Shown piece after piece: positions 130 through 10,763 of a stretch of DNA of 61,567 nt. How positions within the stretch are numbered: position 1 is the stretch's first letter; each line of letters begins with the position of its first letter. The notes beneath the pieces are model-generated. The model had not been told where the DNA came from, ran no database searches, and was given only the letters and a program-made list of their open reading frames with translations. Where the stretch lies: contig JBEKHN010000015.1 of assembly GCA_050012255.1 (NCBI GenBank), forward strand, positions 1 to 61,567. Reading direction: 5' to 3'. A program made the translations under genes and the position numbers. This DNA comes from Candidatus Bathyarchaeia archaeon. GTDB lineage: Archaea; Thermoproteota; Bathyarchaeia; Bathyarchaeales; Bathycorpusculaceae.

Positions 130-310
130 GACTACTTGCTGTCATCTTTGAGCCTCACATATTTCAATGGAAGTTGAAGCAAGAGATTCATTGGTACGCT
201 CAGAAGCGTATTGATTGTAGAGCGGAATTCGTCGAAGCGCCAAGAGAAGTGCAATTGGTGACAGGCAGCTAATCTTGAAGCACTTGGGCATGTGCGCATT
301 CCACGCTTGC

Positions 311-1042
311 CTATCTGAGGTGTGCAAGACAGACCATTCCGCCCAGTTGCGTAAGGCGTAGACCTGCTGTTGATTCTGCGTCAACTATCCTTGTTTTAAC
401 ATTTCTGTTAGTGGCGATCTGCATCAGCCTGTGTATTCTGTTCTTTTCGTGGCTGTTTGAAAGGTACTCGTCGGTAAGCATTAGGTATTCAGCCGTAAAT
501 CTGCTGGGCTTCTGCGGCCCAAGGATCAGGTCTTCTATTTCCTTAAGCGAATACAGTGCAACTTTGTTCTGATTTGTAGAGTTGAGATGTTTTTCCAGCA
601 TGTCAATAAGGTCTTCCGTCTCCTCTGACGTGGTTTCGGAGATCAGTCGGCGGAACATGGGAGTCCTTGTCATGGCGGCTACTTCAGGCGGTGTGCCAGC
701 GGATCCAGTTATCTCAGAGATTGTTGCCTTGTTTGGGCCTTGGACTAGCCATGCGTGGTGCCCGTGAATGTGATCGATGAACCTTTGGGCGTAATTGGTC
801 TTCGGAGGGGATGCAAGGATGACGCTTCTAACGCCTTCTTTTAGCGTGGGTCTCAGTGCGTTGACGATTGATTCATGAAACTTGTACACGGCTTTCGAGT
901 CGTTCATGGTTCCGTCAAGCCAGACGGTCTTTTCAGGCTTGACAACATTGCTGAAGACCTTCCACAAGACCGCTCGGTCGTCTTCCAGTCCTGCTAGAAT
1001 TGCCACAGGATAGCCGCGCCTATACCCCCTTCTACGCTTCAA
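311..1042 (-). CDS. eRF1/Pelota domain 2-3-like protein lacking the N-domain
   Basis: VILASP motif and C-terminal 'VDAESTAGLRLTQLGGMVCL' resemble pelota/aRF1 M and C domains; no GGQ. Confidence 0.6.
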   Translation of the reverse strand: MKRRRGYRRGYPVAILAGLEDDRAVLWKVFSNVVKPEKTVWLDGTMNDSKAVYKFHESIVNALRPTLKEGVRSVILASPPKTNYAQRFIDHIHGHHAWLVQGPNKATISEITGSAGTPPEVAAMTRTPMFRRLISETTSEETEDLIDMLEKHLNSTNQNKVALYSLKEIEDLILGPQKPSRFTAEYLMLTDEYLSNSHEKNRIHRLMQIATNRNVKTRIVDAESTAGLRLTQLGGMVCLAHLR

Positions 1043-1231
1043 AGACGTTCACCTTGTCTCCAAAACCAGAACACTAAATCTAAACACATCTCCTGCAAAT
1101 TATCGTCTCTCATCACAAATACTCTTTGGTTCAGAGCAGGCAGGACGGCAAAAAAGGTGTTGATCTGATCTGTGAAACGTTCGAAGCCTGGCGGTTACGT
1201 GGCCTCTCTTGGAAGATAAGGCCTTATTTTC

Positions 1232-1570
1232 CTAAAGACCGCTTCCGGCAACATGGCGAGGTTTCTCCTGTGTTGCTTTGATCATCTTGATGGTTTCGGC
1301 AAGACTCAAGTTTGATTTCTGTCGGAGTCCAAAGCCTGTCTGCAGTTTTTTAACGATCAACTTGCTGACAAGAACTGCTCCTTGTCTTCCCAGAATCAGG
1401 TTCAACTCGCTAGCGAACAGTTCGGGGTTCGTGGAAATCTCTTTTCTCTTGATACCAGCGCTCTTTTCAAGATGGAGGAGGAGGGCCTTTCTTCCACTCT
1501 TTCCAAGTGTCCCGAGGGCCTCATCAATACACTGCAGAATTCTCTGTTCGACGTCTGGGTCGGCGGACAT
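1232..1570 (-). CDS. Small helical protein resembling DUF3227/NitrOD5 output domains
   Basis: 'IDEALGTLGKSGRKALLLHLE...PELFASELNLILG..GA..V.K.I.K.L' pattern; probable start at ATG 1570. Confidence 0.55.
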   Translation of the reverse strand: MSADPDVEQRILQCIDEALGTLGKSGRKALLLHLEKSAGIKRKEISTNPELFASELNLILGRQGAVLVSKLIVKKLQTGFGLRQKSNLSLAETIKMIKATQEKPRHVAGSGL

Positions 1571-1602
1571 GGAGTTTAGTTCTAGAATAGAACATATATA
1601 AG

Positions 1603-1648
1603 CTTTATTTTTGTCGAAGACAAAGCTTATTTGTCGACAAAAATAAAG
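1603..1648. promoter_or_regulatory. 15-bp perfect inverted repeat, candidate operator between divergent genes
   Basis: CTTTATTTTTGTCGA (1603-1617) / TCGACAAAAATAAAG (1634-1648); adjacent TATATAA at about 1595. Confidence 0.6.
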
Positions 1649-1660
1649 GAGGTGATATGC

Positions 1661-1792
1661 TTGAACATGAGAACGTTTGTAGCCCGACACTGGAAGGCAA
1701 TACTGGTTGCGCTTGCGATAGGCATGGTCGTCTTCTCGCTTGCTGCTACGAAGGCACATGCAGAACCGATCAATTGCCCATTCGGACCATAA
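1661..1792 (+). CDS. Small secreted pro-peptide MNMRTFVARHWKAILVALAIGMVVFSLAATKAHA/EPINCPFGP (not in ORF track)
   Basis: GGAGGTGA Shine-Dalgarno 5 nt before TTG; basic n-region, hydrophobic h-region, AxA cleavage motif. Confidence 0.6.
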   Translation: MNMRTFVARHWKAILVALAIGMVVFSLAATKAHAEPINCPFGP

Positions 1793-1835
1793 GACTAATA
1801 TAAAGTTGAAGTCAACAGAGAAAAACAGTAGTGGA

Positions 1836-3014
1836 ATGCGCATGCCTGTACACCTTGACCCTATTGACGTGAGGATTCTGGAAGGTCTCGCGGAAAGCGG
1901 ACCGAGAAACATGATGAAACTTGCTAGAGAACTCGACATACCGAGAGGAACTATAATAACAAGGATCAACCGCATGTCCTCTTCTTTTTACTTGACGCTG
2001 CTTACGACTATTTATCACACGAACTTGGGATTGAAGAAGGCGGTGGTTTTCGCGAAAGCGGTTGCAGGACGGGAGGATTTGCTTTTTGACTGTTTGAAGG
2101 TCAACAAGTTCTACATATACTTGAGCAGGTGTTTCGGTTTGTTTGAAGGATGCGTGGGAGTGTACGTTATTCCTGTGGAGCACACGGCCGAATTCGAAGG
2201 TTTCCTGACCGAAGTGGAGAAACTGGGAATAACGGAGAACATAAAGTTGTTCTGGTCGACTTGTTTTCACACTGTAAATCGTTCGAGAAAATGGTTTGAC
2301 TATGATGAGGGGAGGTGGGTTTTTCCTTGGGAAGAGTGGCTTGAGGAGGTTTCTTCTTCAGGAAGTGAACTGCCCTACACACTGAGAGACCCTGAAAGTT
2401 TTCCGTTGAAAGCTGATGAAACCGATTTGTTCATAATAAAGGAACTGGAGAAAGACGCAACCGTGAGCTTGGCCTCTATCGCTAGAAAACTAGGGACAAC
2501 GCTGCAGAACATTCGTTACCATTACGAAACACACGTTGTCAGGCATGGCTTAGTCGAGACCTACCAAGTGGCCATATTTACTTTCGACAGAGCATCGTCC
2601 GACATGCTCTTTTTCGTTTTCAAATTCAGCAACAGCGAAAAAATGGGCAAGTTTGCTCGGTCTCTTCTAGACAAGCCCTTCGTAACTATTCTCGGCAAGA
2701 TTCTGAACCAAAACGCACTGGTCTCTCAGGTTTACCTTCCTAGGAATGAGTTTAGGAATTTCGTCGACGCGTTATCAAAACTCGTGAGAATGAACTTGCT
2801 CGAGAATTACGAATACGTACAGCAGGACCTGCGCTCGGGAAAGTGGTCAAGAGAGACCATTCCCTTCGAGTTCTTCAAAAATGGATCTTGGATGTACAAG
2901 CATTCACAGCATGTTCAAGCCCTTCACCACCTAACCTCAAATGCAAAACAGAGTATGGTTAGCCTCGAATCAACTCAAGAGCCTGAGTGTTCTCAAAGTG
3001 AGACAGACTTCTGA
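1836..3014 (+). CDS. Tandem (double wHTH) Lrp/AsnC-like transcriptional regulator
   Basis: Two 'D..D..IL..L.....' HTH starts (LDPIDVRILEGL; ADETDLFIIKELEKDA), each followed by a RAM-like region. Confidence 0.8.
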   Translation: MRMPVHLDPIDVRILEGLAESGPRNMMKLARELDIPRGTIITRINRMSSSFYLTLLTTIYHTNLGLKKAVVFAKAVAGREDLLFDCLKVNKFYIYLSRCFGLFEGCVGVYVIPVEHTAEFEGFLTEVEKLGITENIKLFWSTCFHTVNRSRKWFDYDEGRWVFPWEEWLEEVSSSGSELPYTLRDPESFPLKADETDLFIIKELEKDATVSLASIARKLGTTLQNIRYHYETHVVRHGLVETYQVAIFTFDRASSDMLFFVFKFSNSEKMGKFARSLLDKPFVTILGKILNQNALVSQVYLPRNEFRNFVDALSKLVRMNLLENYEYVQQDLRSGKWSRETIPFEFFKNGSWMYKHSQHVQALHHLTSNAKQSMVSLESTQEPECSQSETDF

Positions 3015-3168
3015 ATTCGCGCACAGTCCGGGCAAGAAATAGAAAAAACAAGATGCCGCCGACATCCCCACTCATCCTTAGTGCAGATCCCGCCGGTCTC
3101 ACACCCAAACAGGACGCCAAGGTCTGTAAAACCCAAGATAGAATCACTATTATTCCTCTGAGAGAGTG

Positions 3169-3257
3169 TGGCGCGGGGTGTGGGATTTGAACCCACGCGG
3201 CCGTTTCCAGCCACAGACTTAGCAGGCCTGCCCCCTACCAGGCTAGGGCAACCCCGC
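3169..3257 (-). tRNA. tRNA-Ser(GCT), CCA encoded
   Basis: Cloverleaf with CAGGC-CT-GCT-AA-GTCTG anticodon arm, long variable arm, GGTTCAAATCC T-arm. Confidence 0.95.
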
Positions 3258-3353
3258 CCAGTTTTTTAACAACCCCGCAGGTTTTTGCGAGGTTTCTCTC
3301 ATTGCTTTTGCCTGGTTCTCCTTGACTCCGTCTAGAATTGTGGTGGGTCTTGT

Positions 3354-3672
3354 TTATTTGCGTTTTCGGAAGAACAGGATGTCGTCTTTCTGGCATATGT
3401 ACTCAAGTCCGACTAAGATTAGCTTCTTGATATCCTCTTTGTCGTTTGTGGCTGTCACGTCGTATTCGTCATCATTGCTCAAACCAAATATGGCCTGTTC
3501 TACCTGTATGTAGAGTGAGGTATTTTCGAGGCTTGCGTGACCCAAGAATTCTTTGACCAGCAATATGTTTTTGGTCTGGTGATATAGGCTTGTGGCTTTC
3601 CAGTGTCTAAAGGTATGGAAGCTTGTTCTCAGTTTTTCGAGGGTTTTGGAGTTTTCGACTTATGCTTCTCCG
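3354..3672 (-). pseudogene. Tyrosine recombinase/integrase C-terminal remnant
   Basis: Translates SFHTFRHWKATSLYHQTKNILLVKEFLGHASLENTSLY (HxxR, LGH, catalytic Y); frameshifted and truncated upstream. Confidence 0.85.
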
Positions 3673-3721
3673 CGCGTCACAGAATGATGCTCCGATGGCC
3701 CGAGTGTTTGGGTTCCCAAAT

Positions 3722-3915
3722 GCGCGCTAGCGTGTTCCTAAATTCTTTTGGGAAGTAGCTTGTGCTGCTCATTCTGCTGTTCAACCATATTTGGCTCATA
3801 TAGCATACCCCAGGGGGAGGGTGTGAGCACGCAAGCACCCACTCGAACCGCGACAGTAACCATCGGCTATCGGAAAACGCCATGCCTACCTCTTCAACGG
3901 AATTGAGGAACAAAC
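3722..3915 (-). mobile_element. MITE-like repeat, copy 2 (one end degenerate)
   Basis: Reverse-complement match to 39042..39246. Confidence 0.8.
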
Positions 3916-4132
3916 TGATAGCAGCAGCTCATTCTTCTGGCAATCATACTCGAAACCGATTTTGACCGGCTTATTGAGGTTTTCTTCATTGTTCATGAGT
4001 TTTGTCTGGTTATTTTCTTCCCTATGGCTGCTAAACCTTTTTATATGAGAATCGGTGTCTACTGACCTTGTCACATTAATTCATGTAATTAACGAAGCTT
4101 CTGAAAGCTTTTGGAAATGCATGTAAAATTTT

Positions 4133-5299
4133 GTGGCAGGAGAAATGAAACATATGCAAATGGAGTACTTTAAGGACCTGCCGATAAGTTCGCAGGTCTT
4201 GAAAAGCATAGAAGAGCTTGGGTTCAGTAACCTTTTTCCAATACAGGCTCAAGCCATAACCCCGCTACTTGAAGGCAGGGACGTCATCGGACAAGCACAA
4301 ACCGGAACCGGTAAGACCGCGGCTTTCGGAATTCCGATGATTGAACGAGTCAACTCAGGAATCAACAATGTCCAAGGTCTAGTTCTAGTGCCAACCCGGG
4401 AACTTGCCGTTCAGGTTGCACAGCACATCGGGCAACTTGCAAAGTACGCAAGATTGCGAGTGTTGCCGGTCTACGGTGGAGAATCGATTGAGAAGCAGAT
4501 GCGTGCATTGCGAAGCGGCGTCCAGATAGTTGTGGGCACGCCAGGCCGCATAATCGACTTGCTTGAGAGACACATCCTAAATCTGGCATCAGTGAAGATC
4601 GTCGTTCTAGACGAGGCCGACAGAATGCTCGACATGGGGTTCATAGAGGATATTGAATTCATACTTTCGAGAGTACCGTCAAACAGGCAGACGAGCCTTT
4701 TCTCAGCGACGATAGACCAAACGGTCATGAACGTGTGTAACAGATACATGAAGAACCCGGAAAAAATACTCGTGAGCAAAGACGAGATAGCCCTTACGCA
4801 GATGGACCAGTATTACACGATCGTGAACTCTCATGACAAGCTCAAGACTCTCTGCAAAATCTTGGACGAGAACCACATAGGCCGAGCAATAATATTCTGC
4901 AGAACCCGGACAGAGACGAGCATGCTGGCAGAAACGTTGCGAAGCAGAGGATATGATGCAAAGCCGTTGCACGCAGGCTTCACTCAATCCCAAAGGGACT
5001 TTGTCATCAACCTGTTCAGGAATAGAAAACTGAAACTGCTCATCGCTACCGACGTTGCAGCGAGAGGCTTGGACATTCAGGGAATAACTCACATAATAAA
5101 CTACGATGTCCCGCTGGACGCATTAGTCTACTTCCACAGAATCGGCAGAACAGCTAGGGTGGGAGGCGAAGGAACAGCCATAACGCTTGTAAGCTATGGA
5201 GAGATGTCAGACTTCAACAACATAAAAGCCTTGACCAAAACCACGATAGAAAAATTAGCCGACTCTTCGGCGGATTCTCCAATTCAAGAATTCGTATGA
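4133..5299 (+). CDS. DEAD-box RNA helicase
   Basis: AQTGTGKT, PTRELA, DEAD, SAT, HRIGRTAR motifs. Confidence 0.97.
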   Translation: MAGEMKHMQMEYFKDLPISSQVLKSIEELGFSNLFPIQAQAITPLLEGRDVIGQAQTGTGKTAAFGIPMIERVNSGINNVQGLVLVPTRELAVQVAQHIGQLAKYARLRVLPVYGGESIEKQMRALRSGVQIVVGTPGRIIDLLERHILNLASVKIVVLDEADRMLDMGFIEDIEFILSRVPSNRQTSLFSATIDQTVMNVCNRYMKNPEKILVSKDEIALTQMDQYYTIVNSHDKLKTLCKILDENHIGRAIIFCRTRTETSMLAETLRSRGYDAKPLHAGFTQSQRDFVINLFRNRKLKLLIATDVAARGLDIQGITHIINYDVPLDALVYFHRIGRTARVGGEGTAITLVSYGEMSDFNNIKALTKTTIEKLADSSADSPIQEFV

Positions 5300-5439
5300 G
5301 ACCTCCAACATTATCCGTTCATGAAATAACCGTGAAAATGGCCTTGACAAATGGATAAGGTTAAAAAGGCGTGTACACATCAAAGAGTTGTGCAAAAAGA
5401 ATTTTTTGCGCTAAACAGCAGAAGGAGTTGAAAGAGCAG

Positions 5440-5577
5440 ATGTATAGAAAAGAGATGTCTAAGGCAGTTTGTGCTGATTGCGGAAAGGAATGTGAAGTTC
5501 CCTTCAAACCAGACGGAAGCAGACCAGTATACTGCCAAGAGTGTTATTCTAAACGAAGACCGCCACGAAGATATTAA
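5440..5577 (+). CDS. CxxC-x17-CxxC zinc-binding protein
   Basis: CADCGKECEVPFKPDGSRPVYCQEC. Confidence 0.9.
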   Translation: MYRKEMSKAVCADCGKECEVPFKPDGSRPVYCQECYSKRRPPRRY

Positions 5578-5705
5578 GCTCATTAGCTAACATCTCATCT
5601 TCGTTTCACCCTTTTTTCCCAATCACTTTTTTTGTTTGCAGCTTTTCTCACCACTAATGATAATAAGCAGAAAGCACACTTTTCATTGAGGTTAAGATCA
5701 GGGTA

Positions 5706-5849
5706 ATGCCTAAGGATCCAGTTTGCGGCACAGTTCTGGACGACAAAACATCCAAGTTCAAGATCACGTTTGACGGTGAAACCTATCACTTTTGCAGTGT
5801 GACCTGCAAGAAGAGGTTTAAAAGACACCCGATGAAGTTCGTGAAGTAA
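5706..5849 (+). CDS. YHS/TRASH domain protein (47 aa, not in ORF track)
   Basis: MPKDPVCG...YHFCSVTCKKRF. Confidence 0.85.
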   Translation: MPKDPVCGTVLDDKTSKFKITFDGETYHFCSVTCKKRFKRHPMKFVK

Positions 5850-6010
5850 ACCCCCTACTGCTCATATGACCTGTTGATGTGGATGTCAAACTCGCCCGAA
5901 ACGGAGCATGACCACTTGAGAGTTTCACCTTCATGGTCTAACAAGCTTTGGATTGTCCTTATAAGGAAGCGTGGAGTTATCTTGCAATGTCCTTCTATCG
6001 TTGACAGGGG

Positions 6011-6724
6011 ATGCCATCGGGAGAAGGCAAGAAGCGTCACTGTTTCAACAAAGGAGACGACGCTTACTCTGGAGAAGTAGTAATGCGGAACAAAGTATCA
6101 GCCGGCGAATATTTGGCATTTCTTTCAGCAAAATACGATGTCGGCCCCACCAGATTTTTCGAAGCGTTGACGTCAGCGGCAGAAAGCGGCGAATCCACGT
6201 GTGGTACCCTCTCAATCGAAAGCCGTGGAACACATAGGAACAAGGTGGTTCTGCTGATAACGAACGGTGCAAAGGTCGTCGCTCAATTCCCCGTTTCTAA
6301 AGAGTTTCTCTTCGAACAAAACAAGTCAATCAAAGACCTCAGCGATACCAGCATGTTCCGAAGGCGTCTGATCAACAAGAACAATGGACCCCACTCGTTT
6401 CAAATCAGAGATTTGAAGGCCGGCATGAAGAAAGTCAACCTGAAGGCCAAGGTCCTAGAAATTGCGAAGCCTAACCTCGTCTTTACAAGGTTCGGCAACT
6501 ACGCCAGCGTGGCTAACGCTTTGATATCAGACGAAACTGGAAGGATCAAGCTGTGCCTGTGGAACGAACAGATAAGCTCTCTGTCCACAGGAGACACTGT
6601 TCAAATTGAAAACGGAAGCATATCCACGTTCAGAGGCGAAAAGCAACTAAGAGTTGGAAGAAAAGGGACTTTTCACGTTGTGGAAGGTTCAGCTCGCTCT
6701 CTCGAAAACGTGCAGCGCCCTTAA
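6011..6724 (+). CDS. OB-fold ssDNA-binding (RPA/SSB-like) protein with N-terminal extension
   Basis: IRDLKAGMKKVNLKAKV...ISDETGRIKLCLWNEQ; true start probably ATG near 6083. Confidence 0.85.
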   Translation: MPSGEGKKRHCFNKGDDAYSGEVVMRNKVSAGEYLAFLSAKYDVGPTRFFEALTSAAESGESTCGTLSIESRGTHRNKVVLLITNGAKVVAQFPVSKEFLFEQNKSIKDLSDTSMFRRRLINKNNGPHSFQIRDLKAGMKKVNLKAKVLEIAKPNLVFTRFGNYASVANALISDETGRIKLCLWNEQISSLSTGDTVQIENGSISTFRGEKQLRVGRKGTFHVVEGSARSLENVQRP

Positions 6725-6753
6725 GCTACGTTCTTCTGTAAACATTCGTTACT

Positions 6754-6987
6754 CTATGTTTGGTTCTTCATTCCGTCATGGGCAAAATCAAAATTGATGT
6801 CTGAGTACTGTTTTCTCATTTCGCCCAGGTGGTCCCAGCCCCAAGCGTTGACTTCGATTTCCTCAATGAGAGTTAGGACTGTTATTCTTGGCATGAGCAA
6901 CCTTACTCTTTCCATCAGCGCAGGAAAAGATAACTCAAAATAGACCTTTTGAAAGCACGACATATCGCGCCTGGTCTCGGTCATCAC
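6754..6987 (-). CDS. Hypothetical protein
   Basis: 77-aa ORF directly downstream of feoB, same strand. Confidence 0.4.
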   Translation of the reverse strand: MMTETRRDMSCFQKVYFELSFPALMERVRLLMPRITVLTLIEEIEVNAWGWDHLGEMRKQYSDINFDFAHDGMKNQT

Positions 6988-7001
6988 TCAATGATTGTCA
7001 A

Positions 7002-8969
7002 TCATAGTACAAGAGAGAGCAGCCTGAAGGCTATTCCTCCCACGATTATGGCGGATGCGAAATTGGCTATCGATATGGCAGCAGCAGATTTCCATCCGAA
7101 GTCTTTAGCCAAAACCGCGATCGTTGATAGACAAGGCATAAACAGCATGCCAATCAAGGCGAGCATTATCAGCTGAACAGGTGTTAGAAACAGCGCAAGG
7201 TTTGTTGAGCTATAAAGAGCCACCGCGGCGAGCAGTATCATTTCTTTCCTTACCACTCCGAGTATCAGAAGTATTCCAGCGATTGCGGGAAGCCCAAGCC
7301 ATCCAACAGTAAAAGGCGAGATTGCATTGCTCAGATATCCGAGGGTGCCGGTGGCGAGCAGGACCTGAACGAGCGCGCTTCCAATTATGTATATTGGAAA
7401 AACCATGTATATTATCGACTTGGTCCTGACCCAGGTTTGTTTCCACACAACAGACAAAGAAGGAACCTTGAACGAATGCATCTCCATTATGAGACCCGTC
7501 GATTTGCCTGGAACGACTTTCAGTGCCACTCTGCCTAAAGCGAAGATAACTGCAATATCTATTGCATAGAGTGCAAGTGCCCACCCTGGACCTATGAAAG
7601 CCGCTACCAGACCGAGAATCACGATCGTTCTTGCTGCGCAAGGCGCAAAGGTAATGGCGAAGGCCGCAAGGAGCCGCTCACGCCTTGTCTCCATGATTCT
7701 GCACGCACGAATTGCAGGAACGTTGCATCCAAAGCCTAAGATCATTGGAATCAGGGCTTTTCCATGCAATCCGATCTTGTGCATTGCGCTGTCCATCATG
7801 AATGCAACTCTGGTAAGGATGCCGGAGTCTTCAATCATAGCAAGCATAATGTAGAAGGGCACGACGTAGGGTATCACCAACGTGACGCCGGCTACCAAAC
7901 CGCCGTAAACACCGTTCCAGAGGATGCCCACAATCGATCCGCTGAACCTTGGATTCACGGGTTCAAGGAAGCCCAACGCGGCTGAAAACAGGTTTGAAAG
8001 GAGTCCTCCAACGGCGAAAGTCCAGAGAAGCAACCCGGCTATTACGGCTGCACACGTGATGTAGCCGAACGTGCTGTGTGTGGTGACCCAGTCCAGCTTC
8101 TCTGAAAGAGAAGTTTTGATTTCGCTCTGTCGTTGAACCTCGTTTGCAATCTTGCTGGCAAGCGAATATCTCTCAGAGGCCAAGACTGCAAAGCACTGTT
8201 CGTTGTGGATGCTAGATATTTCTGCTGCTAGAGCCTCAGATTCATGAACTACGTCCTGAGATTTGGAACCAACGAGGTTCTTAATCTCAGGATCATTCTC
8301 TAAGAGCTTGATGGCAACCCACCTGGACGGATACCTAAGTGTGAGCTTCTCAGATTGGATTGCTTGATCGAGTTTCTCTATTCTTTCTTCTACCTCGGCT
8401 CCGTATCTTATCGTTGTCTTCTTGTGGTTGCTGTTTCGTGCGACTTTGACGGCGGTTTTTGTCAGCTCGTATATTCCCTCTCCTCTGATGGCCACGGTTG
8501 GAACAACGGGCACGCTTAGGGCCTGCTCCAGCTTTTTTCTATCGATTACTATTCCTTTCTTCTTTGCAACGTCAACTTGGTTTAGACAGAGGACGAGTGG
8601 AGCGTCCATTTCGATGAGCTGAATGGTGAAGAACAGGTTGCGTTCAAGAACGGAGGCATCGACAACGTTGATGACGGCATCAGGGTTTTCTAGGGCTATG
8701 TATTCTCTTGACACGATTTCCTCCATGGAAAAGGTGGAGAATGAATAGATTCCAGGCAGGTCAACGACCGTTATCTTTTGTCCTTCGAAATTAAGCGTGC
8801 CGAGCGCCCTTTCCACCGTTTTCCCGGGCCAGTTGCCGATGATTTGACTTGACCCGGTGAGCTGGTTGAACAACACGCTTTTGCCAACATTTGCATTCCC
8901 AGCCAAGGCGATGGATAGGCCGCGGTCCCTTTGAGCTTCTTTCGCATCAGGGGCAGCGTGGCATGACAT
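7002..8969 (-). CDS. feoB: Ferrous iron transporter FeoB
   Basis: [21 protein letters not shown]-domain; GFGCNVP gate motif; TM domain. Confidence 0.97.
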
Positions 8970-8984
8970 GTCGCATCATTAACC

Positions 8985-9719
8985 TTAATTACTACTCTTA
9001 GAAGCGTCAACGAAGACGTTCGCAGCAATGTCTTGACCGAGAGCGAGCCTTGAACCGCGAACACTAACTTCAACTGGACCCTTGAGCGGCGCAACTCTAA
9101 CGACGTTTATGCTTGTTCCCGGCGTTAAGCCCATGTCCAACAGTCTCTGGAGGACTTTGTGTTCTCCCCTTATGAAGGACACCTTGCCCTGCTGGCCCTC
9201 CTTGAGACGGCTTATTGCCATCAAATCCTTTTCGCGTCTTCCCACTTCTTCCAAACCTTTTCTGTGCAACTCCACGCATTCTTCGCAACTCGAAAAAGGC
9301 AAATCACAAGCAGGAATAATCTTCTCGTCATCAGGGCATTTGTCAGGGTGCTTCAGAAATCTGCAAAGAGACTCTTCGGCCTCATCGGACAAGGCATGCT
9401 CCATCTCACACGCTTCCAAGTGAACTCTATCATTTCCAATTCTCAAAACGTCGTGCAGGAACCGTTCAAGCAGTCGATGCTTCCGAGTTATTTTCTCGGA
9501 AACTCGAAGACCTTTGTCTGTGAGCCTAGCCCCGTGATAAGGCGAGTATTTCACGTAACCCTTCTTGGCAAGCTTCTTCAGCATCTCTGTAACGCTTGCG
9601 GGAGCAATTTCAAAATGCTCCGCTATCTCGGTTGTGGTCACAGTCTTCCCGTTTCGAGAAAGAACGTACAGCGCTTTCAGGTAGTCCTCAACGCTTTTGT
9701 TTTCCACACTTTCACGCAC
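8985..9719 (-). CDS. DtxR/MntR metal-dependent repressor with C-terminal FeoA domain
   Basis: EDYLK, KHRLLERFL, EACEMEH, RLLDMGLTPG. Confidence 0.95.
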   Translation of the reverse strand: MRESVENKSVEDYLKALYVLSRNGKTVTTTEIAEHFEIAPASVTEMLKKLAKKGYVKYSPYHGARLTDKGLRVSEKITRKHRLLERFLHDVLRIGNDRVHLEACEMEHALSDEAEESLCRFLKHPDKCPDDEKIIPACDLPFSSCEECVELHRKGLEEVGRREKDLMAISRLKEGQQGKVSFIRGEHKVLQRLLDMGLTPGTSINVVRVAPLKGPVEVSVRGSRLALGQDIAANVFVDASKSSN

Positions 9720-9720
9720 G

Positions 9721-9776
9721 ATTTAGGCATACCTAAATGTCTCCGCGCCCCTAATAAAGATTTAGGCATGCCTAAA
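9721..9776. promoter_or_regulatory. Two DtxR-type operators flanking the TATA box
   Basis: ATTTAGGCATACCTAAAT (9721-9738) and TTTAGGCATGCCTAAA (9761-9776); TTTATTAG on minus strand between them. Confidence 0.85.
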
Positions 9777-9860
9777 CATTTTCAACGAGCACAGCAGGTT
9801 CATGGAGTGCAGTGTTTCCCCTAAGACGTAGGGTGAATCAAAATATCCGAGATCCCTGTT

Positions 9861-10763
9861 TCAAGTGTAGAGCCCATACATTTGATCTGGTGCAAGAATG
9901 TCCGGAAACATCTTTCTCAGCTTCACACGAGCAGAATAGCAGAGGTGGCACTCGTCCACATAGCCTTCTTCATGATCAACCTGATACCTTCTGACCAGCT
10001 CAGCTGGGCCGCCCTTCAGAATCGGTCCGCACACAGGATGCTCGCACGGGTCAAACTGTTCGAACAGTAGGTGCAGTGCTTTCTTTTTCATGTTGCCTAT
10101 GGTTATGCCTTGACACACGTGGACGTACCCAAACGGGTCGATGTGTACCCGCTTCTGGTTCGAGAAGTCTTCGTCTAAGCATTTGTCGAGTTCTTGCCAC
10201 GGTCTTCTAGGCAAACCTTCAGTCAGTTTTTCGGCAGGTCTTCCTTTGAAGAGGACAGCGCCTTCTCTGACGGGCTCTCCTTTCCAGTTTCTTCCAGTCA
10301 GGTCTTTCCTGGGTTGTTCTATGCTGATGCTGCTCGCTGGTAACCCAAGGTCCTTGGCCGCTTGAAAAGCATGTTTTGCGAGATTCTCTTCTTCTTTGCC
10401 GTAGTGGAATTCATCTTCGCTGATCACCGCATCGGATACGCCTATTTCTGAGATGGGTTTCAGCCATTCTTTTGCGTCTTCAACTGACGTGGCCCAGTAG
10501 GCGTTCGTGATGAACGCTGTCTTGAACCCTAACTTCTTTGCTTCACGCAGTCCCCACAGGAGGATAGGGTAGTAGAGCACCGGTTCACCGCCTTCGAAAC
10601 AGATCCACTCGATAGTTCTGACCTTTTCTGCTTCGTTCAATATTTCTCGTATGTCGGAAATCTTCATCACTCCTTTTGCGTCTGGGCTCCCAAAGACAAA
10701 GCAGTGATCGCACTCCATGTTGCACTTGTAAGTTAGAAGAAGGTCAAGTTCCTTCATGGGCAT
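9861..10763 (-). CDS. Radical SAM protein
   Basis: CNMECDHC, FEGGEP, C-terminal Cys cluster. Confidence 0.9.
   Translation of the reverse strand: MPMKELDLLLTYKCNMECDHCFVFGSPDAKGVMKISDIREILNEAEKVRTIEWICFEGGEPVLYYPILLWGLREAKKLGFKTAFITNAYWATSVEDAKEWLKPISEIGVSDAVISEDEFHYGKEEENLAKHAFQAAKDLGLPASSISIEQPRKDLTGRNWKGEPVREGAVLFKGRPAEKLTEGLPRRPWQELDKCLDEDFSNQKRVHIDPFGYVHVCQGITIGNMKKKALHLLFEQFDPCEHPVCGPILKGGPAELVRRYQVDHEEGYVDECHLCYSARVKLRKMFPDILAPDQMYGLYT

Follow-up and report, generated by a model that had tools for sequence, protein, structure and literature searches.

Does the short open reading frame (ORF) that stands before a double Lrp-like regulator in a Bathyarchaeia genome encode a peptide that this regulator senses? 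The question is raised by positions 1232-3014 of contig JBEKHN010000015.1 (assembly GCA_050012255.1, Candidatus Bathyarchaeia archaeon), of which the stretch from 1 to 61,567, called the window hereafter, was analysed. According to the sequence and its list of ORFs, these positions hold two divergent transcription units, and a sequence-only reading of them had proposed that an exported peptide is sensed by a tandem-Lrp receptor. Our analysis points to a real, conserved and previously unnamed peptide-receptor module, for which a quorum-sensing-like role is the most likely one. Direct recognition of the peptide tail by the regulator is the best-supported statement that we can make, because a conserved pairing, a conserved motif, a predicted complex and covariation all bear on it, and we hold it to be probable. 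The further steps of export, release, re-uptake and binding, which would close a quorum-sensing-like loop, stand in our judgement at about an even chance.

A small gene in front of the regulator

The small ORF lies at 1661-1792 on the plus strand and encodes the product MNMRTFVARHWKAILVALAIGMVVFSLAATKAHAEPINCPFGP in 43 codons, starting with TTG at 1661, with a second, in-frame ATG at 1667, and ending with the stop TAA at 1790-1792. It is preceded by the Shine-Dalgarno sequence GGAGGTGA (1648..1655, plus strand), 5 nucleotides (nt) before the TTG. A putative N-terminal export signal is encoded at 1661..1762 (plus strand), made of the n-region RTFVARHWK, a 17-residue hydrophobic core and the c-region TKAHA with alanine at -3 and -1, and is followed at 1763..1792 (plus strand) by the C-terminal motif EPINCPFGP, the putative mature 9-mer and candidate ligand, with the stop codon. 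The predicted receptor is a tandem Lrp/AsnC-type regulator of 392 residues (1836..3014, plus strand), at which two modules, each a helix-turn-helix (HTH) and a RAM domain, are joined in one chain. Its first ATG, at 1836, is 43 nt from the small ORF and is not kept in relatives (ATA in the closest one); the second, at 1842, is found in every close relative, and since only this one is conserved, the regulator probably starts there. The ORF, its Shine-Dalgarno sequence, a 15-base-pair (bp) inverted repeat before it, the 43-nt gap and the double-HTH gene are all placed as the sequence-only reading had placed them. The signal peptide that it quoted was right in sequence, except that the residues TK before AHA had been left out.

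Homologues of the regulator were collected from 41 related genomes, 29 of which gave a match, and by a second scan, which covered GTDB with one genome per species and yielded 79 loci. There is overlap between the two sets, some genomes being present in both; together they amount to 99 loci, 3 of them without upstream DNA, and the non-redundant set consists of 82 different peptides. Locus titles are nearly all Bathyarchaeia or Bathyarchaeota, with a few Nitrososphaeria, Thermoprotei, Geothermarchaeum and Scotarchaeum, and a single Acidoferrum that we take to be a binning error. By script, 92 of 96 loci were found to have a small ORF on the same strand that ends 15-156 nt before the regulator and whose N-terminal segment is strongly hydrophobic; the presence of such an ORF at homologous regulators had been named beforehand as a check on the proposal. 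The four misses of the script were L011, L018, L030 and L094. In L030 (L030:3200-3410) the ORF is present, split over two frames at a run of eight A, with its tail GDPIDSPIGPK intact, and the frame break may be an assembly error. A different kind of damage is seen in L006 and L031, where the N-terminus of the peptide gene is kept and a 1-nt deletion is followed by a frameshifted, degenerate tail.

The 82 unique peptides share one architecture. All of them have K or R somewhere in residues 1-8, then a long stretch free of charged residues, a variable middle part and a conserved C-terminal motif, which reads roughly [V/L]-[Q/E]-P-x-G-[D/E]-P-[I/V]-[D/P]-x-[P/G]-x-x-P. Clades have their own variants, such as GDPVPGGG[I/V/T]P, PIDTPGGPT and GD[E/D]RGGGWP, and in the window's clade the motif is [E/D]P[I/V][D/N]xPxGP. 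A strict regular expression for the motif is matched by 64 of the 82 peptides, as against 4 of the 44,608 stop-to-stop frames (of at least 30 residues) in the window's own genome, and most of the 18 peptides that it misses end in visible variants of the motif. When the hydrophobic stretch is added to the pattern, a single one of these 44,608 frames remains, namely the ORF itself. Five precursors (L053, L056, L060, L061 and L016) carry 2-3 copies of the motif. The first four have two copies of GDPV[D/P/E/A]GG[H/G]P in one precursor, and L016 (genome G019), a distant member that stands before a regulator of 29% identity, has another tail three times (ADNGRPY, PLDNGRPY and PLDNGRPY).

The frame itself appears to be under selection. 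In pairwise comparison of 12 short-form relatives, the differences by codon position in the signal-peptide frame number 894/521/1223, and those in the last 9 codons 143/86/311; these differences mark it as the frame under purifying selection. The overlapping Cys-rich frame (1657-1803), which might have been the conserved one instead, varies freely and does not keep its cysteines even within the genus. Nor is the ORF the truncated 5′ end of a large secreted protein, for the relatives have forms of 58-80 residues that end in the same motif, and the form of 38-43 residues lacks only the middle pro-region. For the TTG start, L005 and L029 offer support, having ATG at the equivalent position. Moreover, 63 of the 82 unique relatives have a Shine-Dalgarno core no more than 20 nt from the start (GGAGGTG in 48), as compared with 221 of 5000 random 20-nt windows. 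Public annotation knows these peptides as "hypothetical protein"; of the eight sequences looked up in the annotation collection, seven had exact matches and the window's peptide in its ATG-start form had none. By these counts, the 43-codon ORF is more than a chance frame.

The tandem-Lrp regulator and its predicted contact with the peptide

Two winged HTHs are the only Pfam matches of the window's regulator, an HTH_AsnC-type at residues 7-47 and an HTH_24 at residues 194-229, and PF13404 reaches 47.1 bits over two stretches (cut-off 27). Both HTHs are well conserved in the family, HTH_24 being matched by 76 of 76 members and HTH_AsnC-type by 75 of 76; the Pfam RAM model matches none of the 76 at E <= 0.001. 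A profile of the 76 members aligns with whole Lrp chains by each of its halves (7fby at E 3.7e-9, profile positions 184-325; LrpC 2cfx at E 1e-5, positions 1-122). In the AlphaFold2 (AF2) model, a confident one with a predicted local distance difference test (pLDDT) of 92.1 and a predicted template modelling score (pTM) of 0.88, an HTH followed by beta-alpha-beta-beta-alpha-beta occurs twice, each time with an extra conserved Trp-rich segment after it. The top whole-chain match of Foldseek was NirDL (4ch7; E 1.9e-10, template modelling (TM) score 0.53 to the query and 0.65 to the target, 9% identity), and each half taken separately matched archaeal Lrp chains (E about 1e-5, TM 0.66-0.72 to the target). 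The profile, AF2 and Foldseek matches thus identify the regulator as a tandem Lrp, as had been read from the sequence, and by predicted fold and profile a RAM-type effector domain is present in both halves. The family is of modest size and counts 172 cluster representatives at E <= 1e-30 out of 1.84 billion. Neighbours of 1842-3011 in the ESM Atlas (scores 0.93-0.95) are archaeal clusters of 346-397 residues with similar feature profiles and winged-HTH matches, and they occur in Nitrososphaerota, Thermoplasmatota and Thorarchaeota.

For the prediction of a complex, the regulator of the relative L066 was co-folded with residues 35-64 of its own peptide, each given as an alignment. This relative was taken since its pro-peptide reaches the length needed for co-folding, and its tail, QPTGFPIDCPGGPT, is close to the window's EPINCPFGP. 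The pair scored 0.84, 0.87 and 0.78, as compared with 0.03 for the best of 3 controls; the runs had at least 79% of their contacts in common, with a partner pLDDT of at least 54. The same mark was reached by 58 of 80 solved complexes and by 2 of 110 mismatched pairs, counts that calibrate only roughly a run with user-supplied alignments. In the model, only peptide residues 51-64, that is the conserved motif, contact the regulator. On the side of the regulator, the predicted contacts lie on the C-terminal extension, on the second HTH's first helix and on strands belonging to both RAM domains. Among them are E201, which is invariant, and R333 and T335, which are nearly so (E205, R339 and T341 in the window's protein); K202 and K206 are further predicted contacts in the window's protein.

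The covariation between peptides and regulators had not been given to this model as paired rows. Mutual information with average product correction was obtained for 12 x 367 column pairs, from 69 regulators paired with their own peptide motifs (effective number 54). Eight of the 25 most confident predicted contacts fall within the top 5% of covariation, a number that 0 of 5000 permutations of the regulator positions reached (mean 1.1), and maximal covariation is higher at interface positions than elsewhere (Mann-Whitney p = 0.0012). Single positions can be followed. Where peptide position 55 is D or E, K is found at regulator position 198 in 48 of 60 cases; where position 55 is absent, 198 is E in 6 of 7, and F or I at position 55 goes with M198 and W199. 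Similarly, E at peptide position 56 is accompanied by R or K at regulator position 332 in 8 of 11 cases, and the single K at 56 by E. Such charge-complementary changes at predicted contacts are physically sensible. The sensing of the peptide by the tandem-Lrp protein, for which covariation had been suggested as a check, finds support in the predicted L066 complex and in covariation specific to its contacts.

Peptide classes follow regulator clades in a quick maximum-likelihood tree, and 13 assemblies of the GTDB scan have two loci each with different peptide classes; one chromosome, for example, has DPINTPVGP at one locus and GDPVPGGGTP at another. Some related genomes contain 3-4 matches to the regulator.

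Two rival explanations may be considered at this point. In the first, the gene encodes a co-transcribed secreted cargo that has an extracellular activity of its own and does not bind the regulator, such as an antimicrobial, a metal-binding peptide or the core of a ribosomally synthesised and post-translationally modified peptide (RiPP). Small secreted peptides beside regulators are common, and some of the tails do contain Cys. However, this Cys is not conserved, its position in the motif being taken by C, T, S, D, N or G, the peptide is acidic and has only 9 residues, no conserved modification enzyme or immunity gene lies nearby, and both the co-fold and the covariation argue for binding, so that we find a mere cargo very improbable. 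A RiPP cluster as such was rejected, as there is no conserved enzyme neighbour.

In the second, the upstream ORF would act as an arrest peptide in the manner of SecM, MifM or VemP, whose Pro/Gly-rich end stalls the ribosome near the stop and thereby controls translation of the regulator. The layout would fit, with an upstream small ORF, an N-terminal export signal, a conserved Pro/Gly-rich C-terminal motif and a short gap to the next, regulated gene, and the motif is conserved at the amino-acid level. Yet the ORFs are far shorter than those of SecM, MifM and VemP (13 unique peptides have the 38-43-residue form), and an ORF of this length ends before the signal leaves the ribosome tunnel, which leaves no pulling force to release the stall. 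In addition, the motif is sometimes internal or duplicated, with 5-19 residues after it in several relatives or with the motif present twice, and the downstream gene is a transcription factor rather than secretion machinery. Covariation of the peptide with residues of this factor would find no explanation in stalling. An arrest peptide is, to our mind, extremely improbable.

Proposed export, signalling loop and control region

Where would the ligand be made? Flanking charges bear on the orientation of the pre-peptide: the mean net charge is +1.67 in the n-flank and -0.60 in the c-flank, and the n-flank is the more positive one in 69 of 82 peptides, a bias that predicts N-in/C-out. The residues after the motif, 143 in all, contain 15 N-x-S/T sequons, with at least one in 9 of the 10 tails of at least 5 residues; such sequon-rich tails fit an extracellular C-terminus that could be glycosylated. 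In 12 of the 13 short-form peptides, small residues occupy -3 and -1 (AHA, ALA, AHG, VHA, AFA, VFA, VLT) directly before [E/D]P. Cleavage by signal peptidase at this point in the window's clade would leave only the motif of 9-12 residues, which here would be EPINCPFGP. Two other kinds of signal were considered and rejected. A class III (prepilin-like) signal, with the FlaFind pattern [KR][GA] plus a hydrophobic run, is found in only 17 of 82 unique peptides, and a C-terminal sorting signal for sortase or archaeosortase would need a hydrophobic segment after the motif, which is not there.

The same N-terminal stretch could also remain in the membrane. The product would then be an uncleaved small membrane protein, held by a signal anchor and showing its tail on the cell surface for some other sensing or for adhesion, and the regulator would do no more than control its expression. 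This is a possible course because the stretch without D, E, K or R is long, with a median of 24 residues, and the public annotations, being those of hypothetical proteins, are compatible with it. The conserved part, on the other hand, is the tail and not the helix, and co-fold and covariation at the contacts make the regulator its partner; we consider an uncleaved membrane protein quite improbable.

We propose instead the following course of events. The pre-peptide would leave by the Sec pathway, oriented N-in/C-out. Cleavage behind AHA would in this genus set free the 9-mer EPINCPFGP, and in other clades a pro-peptide of 35-45 residues would need further trimming. The Pro/Gly-rich C-terminal motif would be the cognate ligand of the co-transcribed tandem-Lrp regulator and would occupy a cleft to which both RAM-type domains, the second HTH's first helix and the C-terminal extension contribute. 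With a ligand that would be made outside and a cytoplasmic receptor, an autoinducer loop is the most likely circuit, in which the peptide is exported, accumulates, is taken up again, for example by one of the genome's Opp/Dpp-type transporters, and is bound. Binding may then alter the occupancy by the regulator of an inverted repeat in the divergent promoter, and the altered occupancy would change expression of the peptide-regulator operon and of the divergent NitrOD-like gene. Export, cleavage, release, re-uptake and expression, with any dependence on cell density, are steps that we infer. With regard to uptake, the window's own genome has three SBP_bac_5 matches over the cut-off (Opp/Dpp-type binding proteins), none of them linked to the module, which make re-uptake of the peptide possible.

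The main rival to this loop needs no uptake. In the manner of FlgM/sigma-28 or of ExsE, the regulator would bind, in the cytoplasm, the tail of the precursor that has not yet been exported, and export would remove the ligand; the module would then report secretion capacity or the state of the membrane, and not cell density. Predicted binding and covariation are as compatible with this as with the loop, none of the genes linked to the module is an importer, and a product of 43 residues can only be exported after its translation has ended, so that at least a brief cytoplasmic pool is to be expected. What secretion-coupled regulation leaves without an obvious role are the sequon-rich tails, the multi-copy precursors and the -3/-1 cleavage site that lies exactly at the boundary of the motif in 12 of 13 short forms, all of them features of an extracellular product. 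We regard it as unlikely.

Several observations weigh against the quorum-sensing-like loop, or against parts of it, and they are best considered together. No RAM domain is known to bind a peptide. The complex was predicted for the relative L066 and not for the window's own pair. The top 30 covarying positions include only 6 of the 37 at the interface (hypergeometric p = 0.067), a weak enrichment, and the interface positions as a set are not more conserved than the rest (mean entropy 1.82 vs 1.75 bits). Shared descent inflates the covariation counts; the comparison made is one of contacts with non-contacts in the same sequences, which have this bias in common. The motif is rather conserved for a pherotype signal, and the window's genome has one module only. 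The long uncharged N-terminal stretch may be that of an uncleaved membrane anchor, and within about 4 kilobases (kb) of the module no conserved transporter, protease, peptidase or enzyme was found across the loci.

The region between the two transcription units would be the place of regulation. The divergent gene (1232..1570, minus strand) encodes 112 residues, a stand-alone NitrOD5/NitrOD2-like domain. Taken alone, it scores 17.3 bits with NitrOD5, below the Pfam cut-off of 27; in its family of 19 members, 13 match NitrOD5 (best E 1.8e-6) and 6 match NitrOD2. A divergent small gene recurs 90-190 nt upstream of the peptide gene. Its type differs between loci, being NitrOD5/NitrOD2-like in 35 of 99, PadR in 15 (37 bits vs a cut-off of 27), zinc-ribbon in 8 and TFIIB-like in 6. 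The NitrOD-like gene is likely a co-regulated partner or the output of the module.

Between the ATG of the divergent gene and the TATA-like ATATATAA (1594-1601, as read from the sequence) lies the palindrome TTCTAGAA (1580..1587), which is kept in most of 16 aligned intergenic regions. It is followed by the candidate operator at 1603..1648, a perfect 15-bp inverted repeat with arms at 1603-1617 and 1634-1648 and a 16-nt spacer. Thirty shuffles of the upstream 160 nt gave no perfect inverted repeat longer than 8, and in L001-L004 arms of 12-15 bp stand against a shuffle maximum of 8-9. In the window, the left arm overlaps with a T-rich, TATA-like box, and the right arm borders directly on the ribosome-binding site. 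Conservation of the intergenic region is strong in the window's genus and extends to the inverted-repeat cores, to TTCTAGAA and to the TATA-like ATATATAA. Other clades, too, have inverted repeats of this geometry (TTTTTxxx, N16-27, xxxAAAAA), at -50 to -90. In a scan for perfect inverted repeats only 11 of 82 loci beat all 30 of their own shuffles, and for this reason an operator common to the family is suggested only. That the repeat at 1603-1648 is an operator is plausible; both the operator and the sign of its regulation are what we infer from this arrangement.

Genomic surroundings, a viral copy and known systems

The suggestion that the module may be mobile, made from its position next to a tRNA gene, does not hold at this locus. 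The inverted repeat of 130 bp formed by 1-127 and 3722-3849 was tried as the ends of a mobile element and rejected: both belong to a dispersed repeat ~180 bp long that has about 30 matches in the genome, with 83-92% identity between copies and several copies at contig ends (C15, C25, C8). This repeat looks like a miniature inverted-repeat transposable element and is probably a source of assembly breaks. Synteny with L021 (91% at the nt level) spans 277-3193 of the window and that with L028 spans 165-2972, and the syntenic block in related species consists of a pelota-like gene, the NitrOD-like gene, the peptide gene and the regulator. The tRNA-Ser(gct) gene (3169-3257, minus strand) turns its 3′ end towards the module. 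Among 9 related loci none has a tRNA within about 4 kb. In L021, a relative of 95% identity, the likeness to the window stops within the tRNA, in its 3′ part, and only a fragment of ~25 nt of the tRNA is present there (L021:5320-5350). Such a pattern marks an element that has inserted into the tRNA on the far side of the module; the module is thus chromosomal flank, and the tRNA-Ser(gct) gene appears to be an integration hot spot.

Two neighbouring features may be mentioned here. The pelota-like gene (311-1042, minus strand) encodes a protein of 243 residues resembling domain 3 of pelota/eRF1 (TIGR00111 at E 1.2e-7 and PF03465 at E 3.2e-4, both below cut-offs); it shares synteny with the module at 5 loci within the genus and may be a divergent paralogue of the mRNA-surveillance factor. 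On the 5′ side of the tRNA, at 3354-3563, there is a 69-residue C-terminal fragment of a tyrosine recombinase, with weak matches only.

A scan of viral contigs gave one relative, L100, on an IMG/VR contig, where the module (3580-5491, with flanks examined from 323 to 10459) comprises a Zn-ribbon gene, a pre-peptide of 68 residues ending in IIDTPGGPG and the tandem-Lrp regulator. A weak terminase-like gene flanks it on one side; the genes on the other encode a cement protein (PF09956, 43.1 bits, cut-off 24), an HK97-type major capsid protein (PF05065, 33.5 bits, cut-off 24.2) and a head protease-like protein. L074 has a further gene in common with this contig, at 85% identity. The L100 contig therefore indicates that the module is sometimes borne by a virus, and it raises the possibility of virus communication in archaea.

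How does such a module compare with what is known? Typical Lrp/AsnC proteins are single modules of ~150 residues that form dimers or octamers and take an amino acid as effector. Each half of the regulator described here resembles them (Pyrococcus LrpA 1i1g, PH0140 7fby/9w4w and FL11 2e1c) in its AsnC-type winged HTH followed by a RAM-type alpha/beta domain, with profile E-values from 3.7e-9 to 1e-5. It differs in that two modules are joined in one chain of ~390 residues, each with an added Trp-rich segment after the RAM domain, and in that its predicted ligand is a peptide and not an amino acid. A fused or paired double Lrp fold is also that of the sirohaem decarboxylase NirDL/AhbA-AhbB, which, to go by the titles of PDB entries 4ch7, 4czc and 4czd, holds a large ligand between its two halves. 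Identity to it is only 9-10%, however, and NirDL/AhbAB is an enzyme of haem d1 or haem synthesis, whereas no haem-pathway gene is among the conserved neighbours of the module, only HTH families are matched in Pfam, and both HTHs are conserved.

The closest likeness in logic is to peptide signalling in bacteria. The RRNPP(A) systems of Bacillota and their phages include Rap/Phr, PlcR/PapR, NprR/NprX, Rgg/SHP and AimR/AimP. As in these, a small gene for an exported pro-peptide stands beside the gene of a cytoplasmic receptor or transcription factor, and the active part would be a ligand of 5-10 residues at the C-terminus of the precursor; conservation and the predicted interface are both confined, in silico, to the last 9-14 residues of the peptide. 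Several distinct pairs may share a genome, and one copy is on a virus, as in arbitrium. The receptor, in contrast, is a fused double Lrp/AsnC protein instead of an array of tetratricopeptide repeats (TPR), no TPR family being among the Pfam matches of the window's protein or of the 76 members. Hosted by archaea (Bathyarchaeia), the module has its peptide gene upstream of the receptor gene on the same strand, a fairly conserved motif rich in Pro and Gly, and no linked protease or Opp genes. The module thus falls outside the RRNPP family, because the defining TPR receptor is absent, even though its logic matches that of RRNPP systems and arbitrium. The precursors with several motif copies resemble, moreover, some bacterial pheromone propeptides with tandem peptide copies, according to PMC11343458. 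Reviews of RRNPPA systems are PMC9765709 and PMC4873490.

Turning to archaea, a literature search over titles and abstract openings yielded no paper on peptide-based cell-cell signalling with a cytoplasmic receptor, in line with the initial impression that such a system had not been described there. Known archaeal signals are small molecules. A direct test is within reach: the putative ligand, a 9-mer, can be made synthetically, and its predicted receptor is one soluble protein. Perhaps, then, Bathyarchaeia have built a peptide quorum sensing from parts unrelated to the bacterial ones, with a Sec-exported Pro/Gly-rich oligopeptide, a cytoplasmic fused double-Lrp receptor that takes the peptide between its two RAM domains, several orthogonal pairs within a genome and, in at least one head-tailed archaeal virus, a pair of its own that is possibly arbitrium-like; for this wider picture as a whole we would claim somewhat less than an even chance. 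If the module works as proposed, it would give a handle on the social behaviour of an abundant lineage of sediment, peat and soil, it would add a new class of ligand to the widespread Lrp/RAM fold, and it would represent a third, non-homologous solution to peptide sensing beside the TPR receptors and the two-component sensors.

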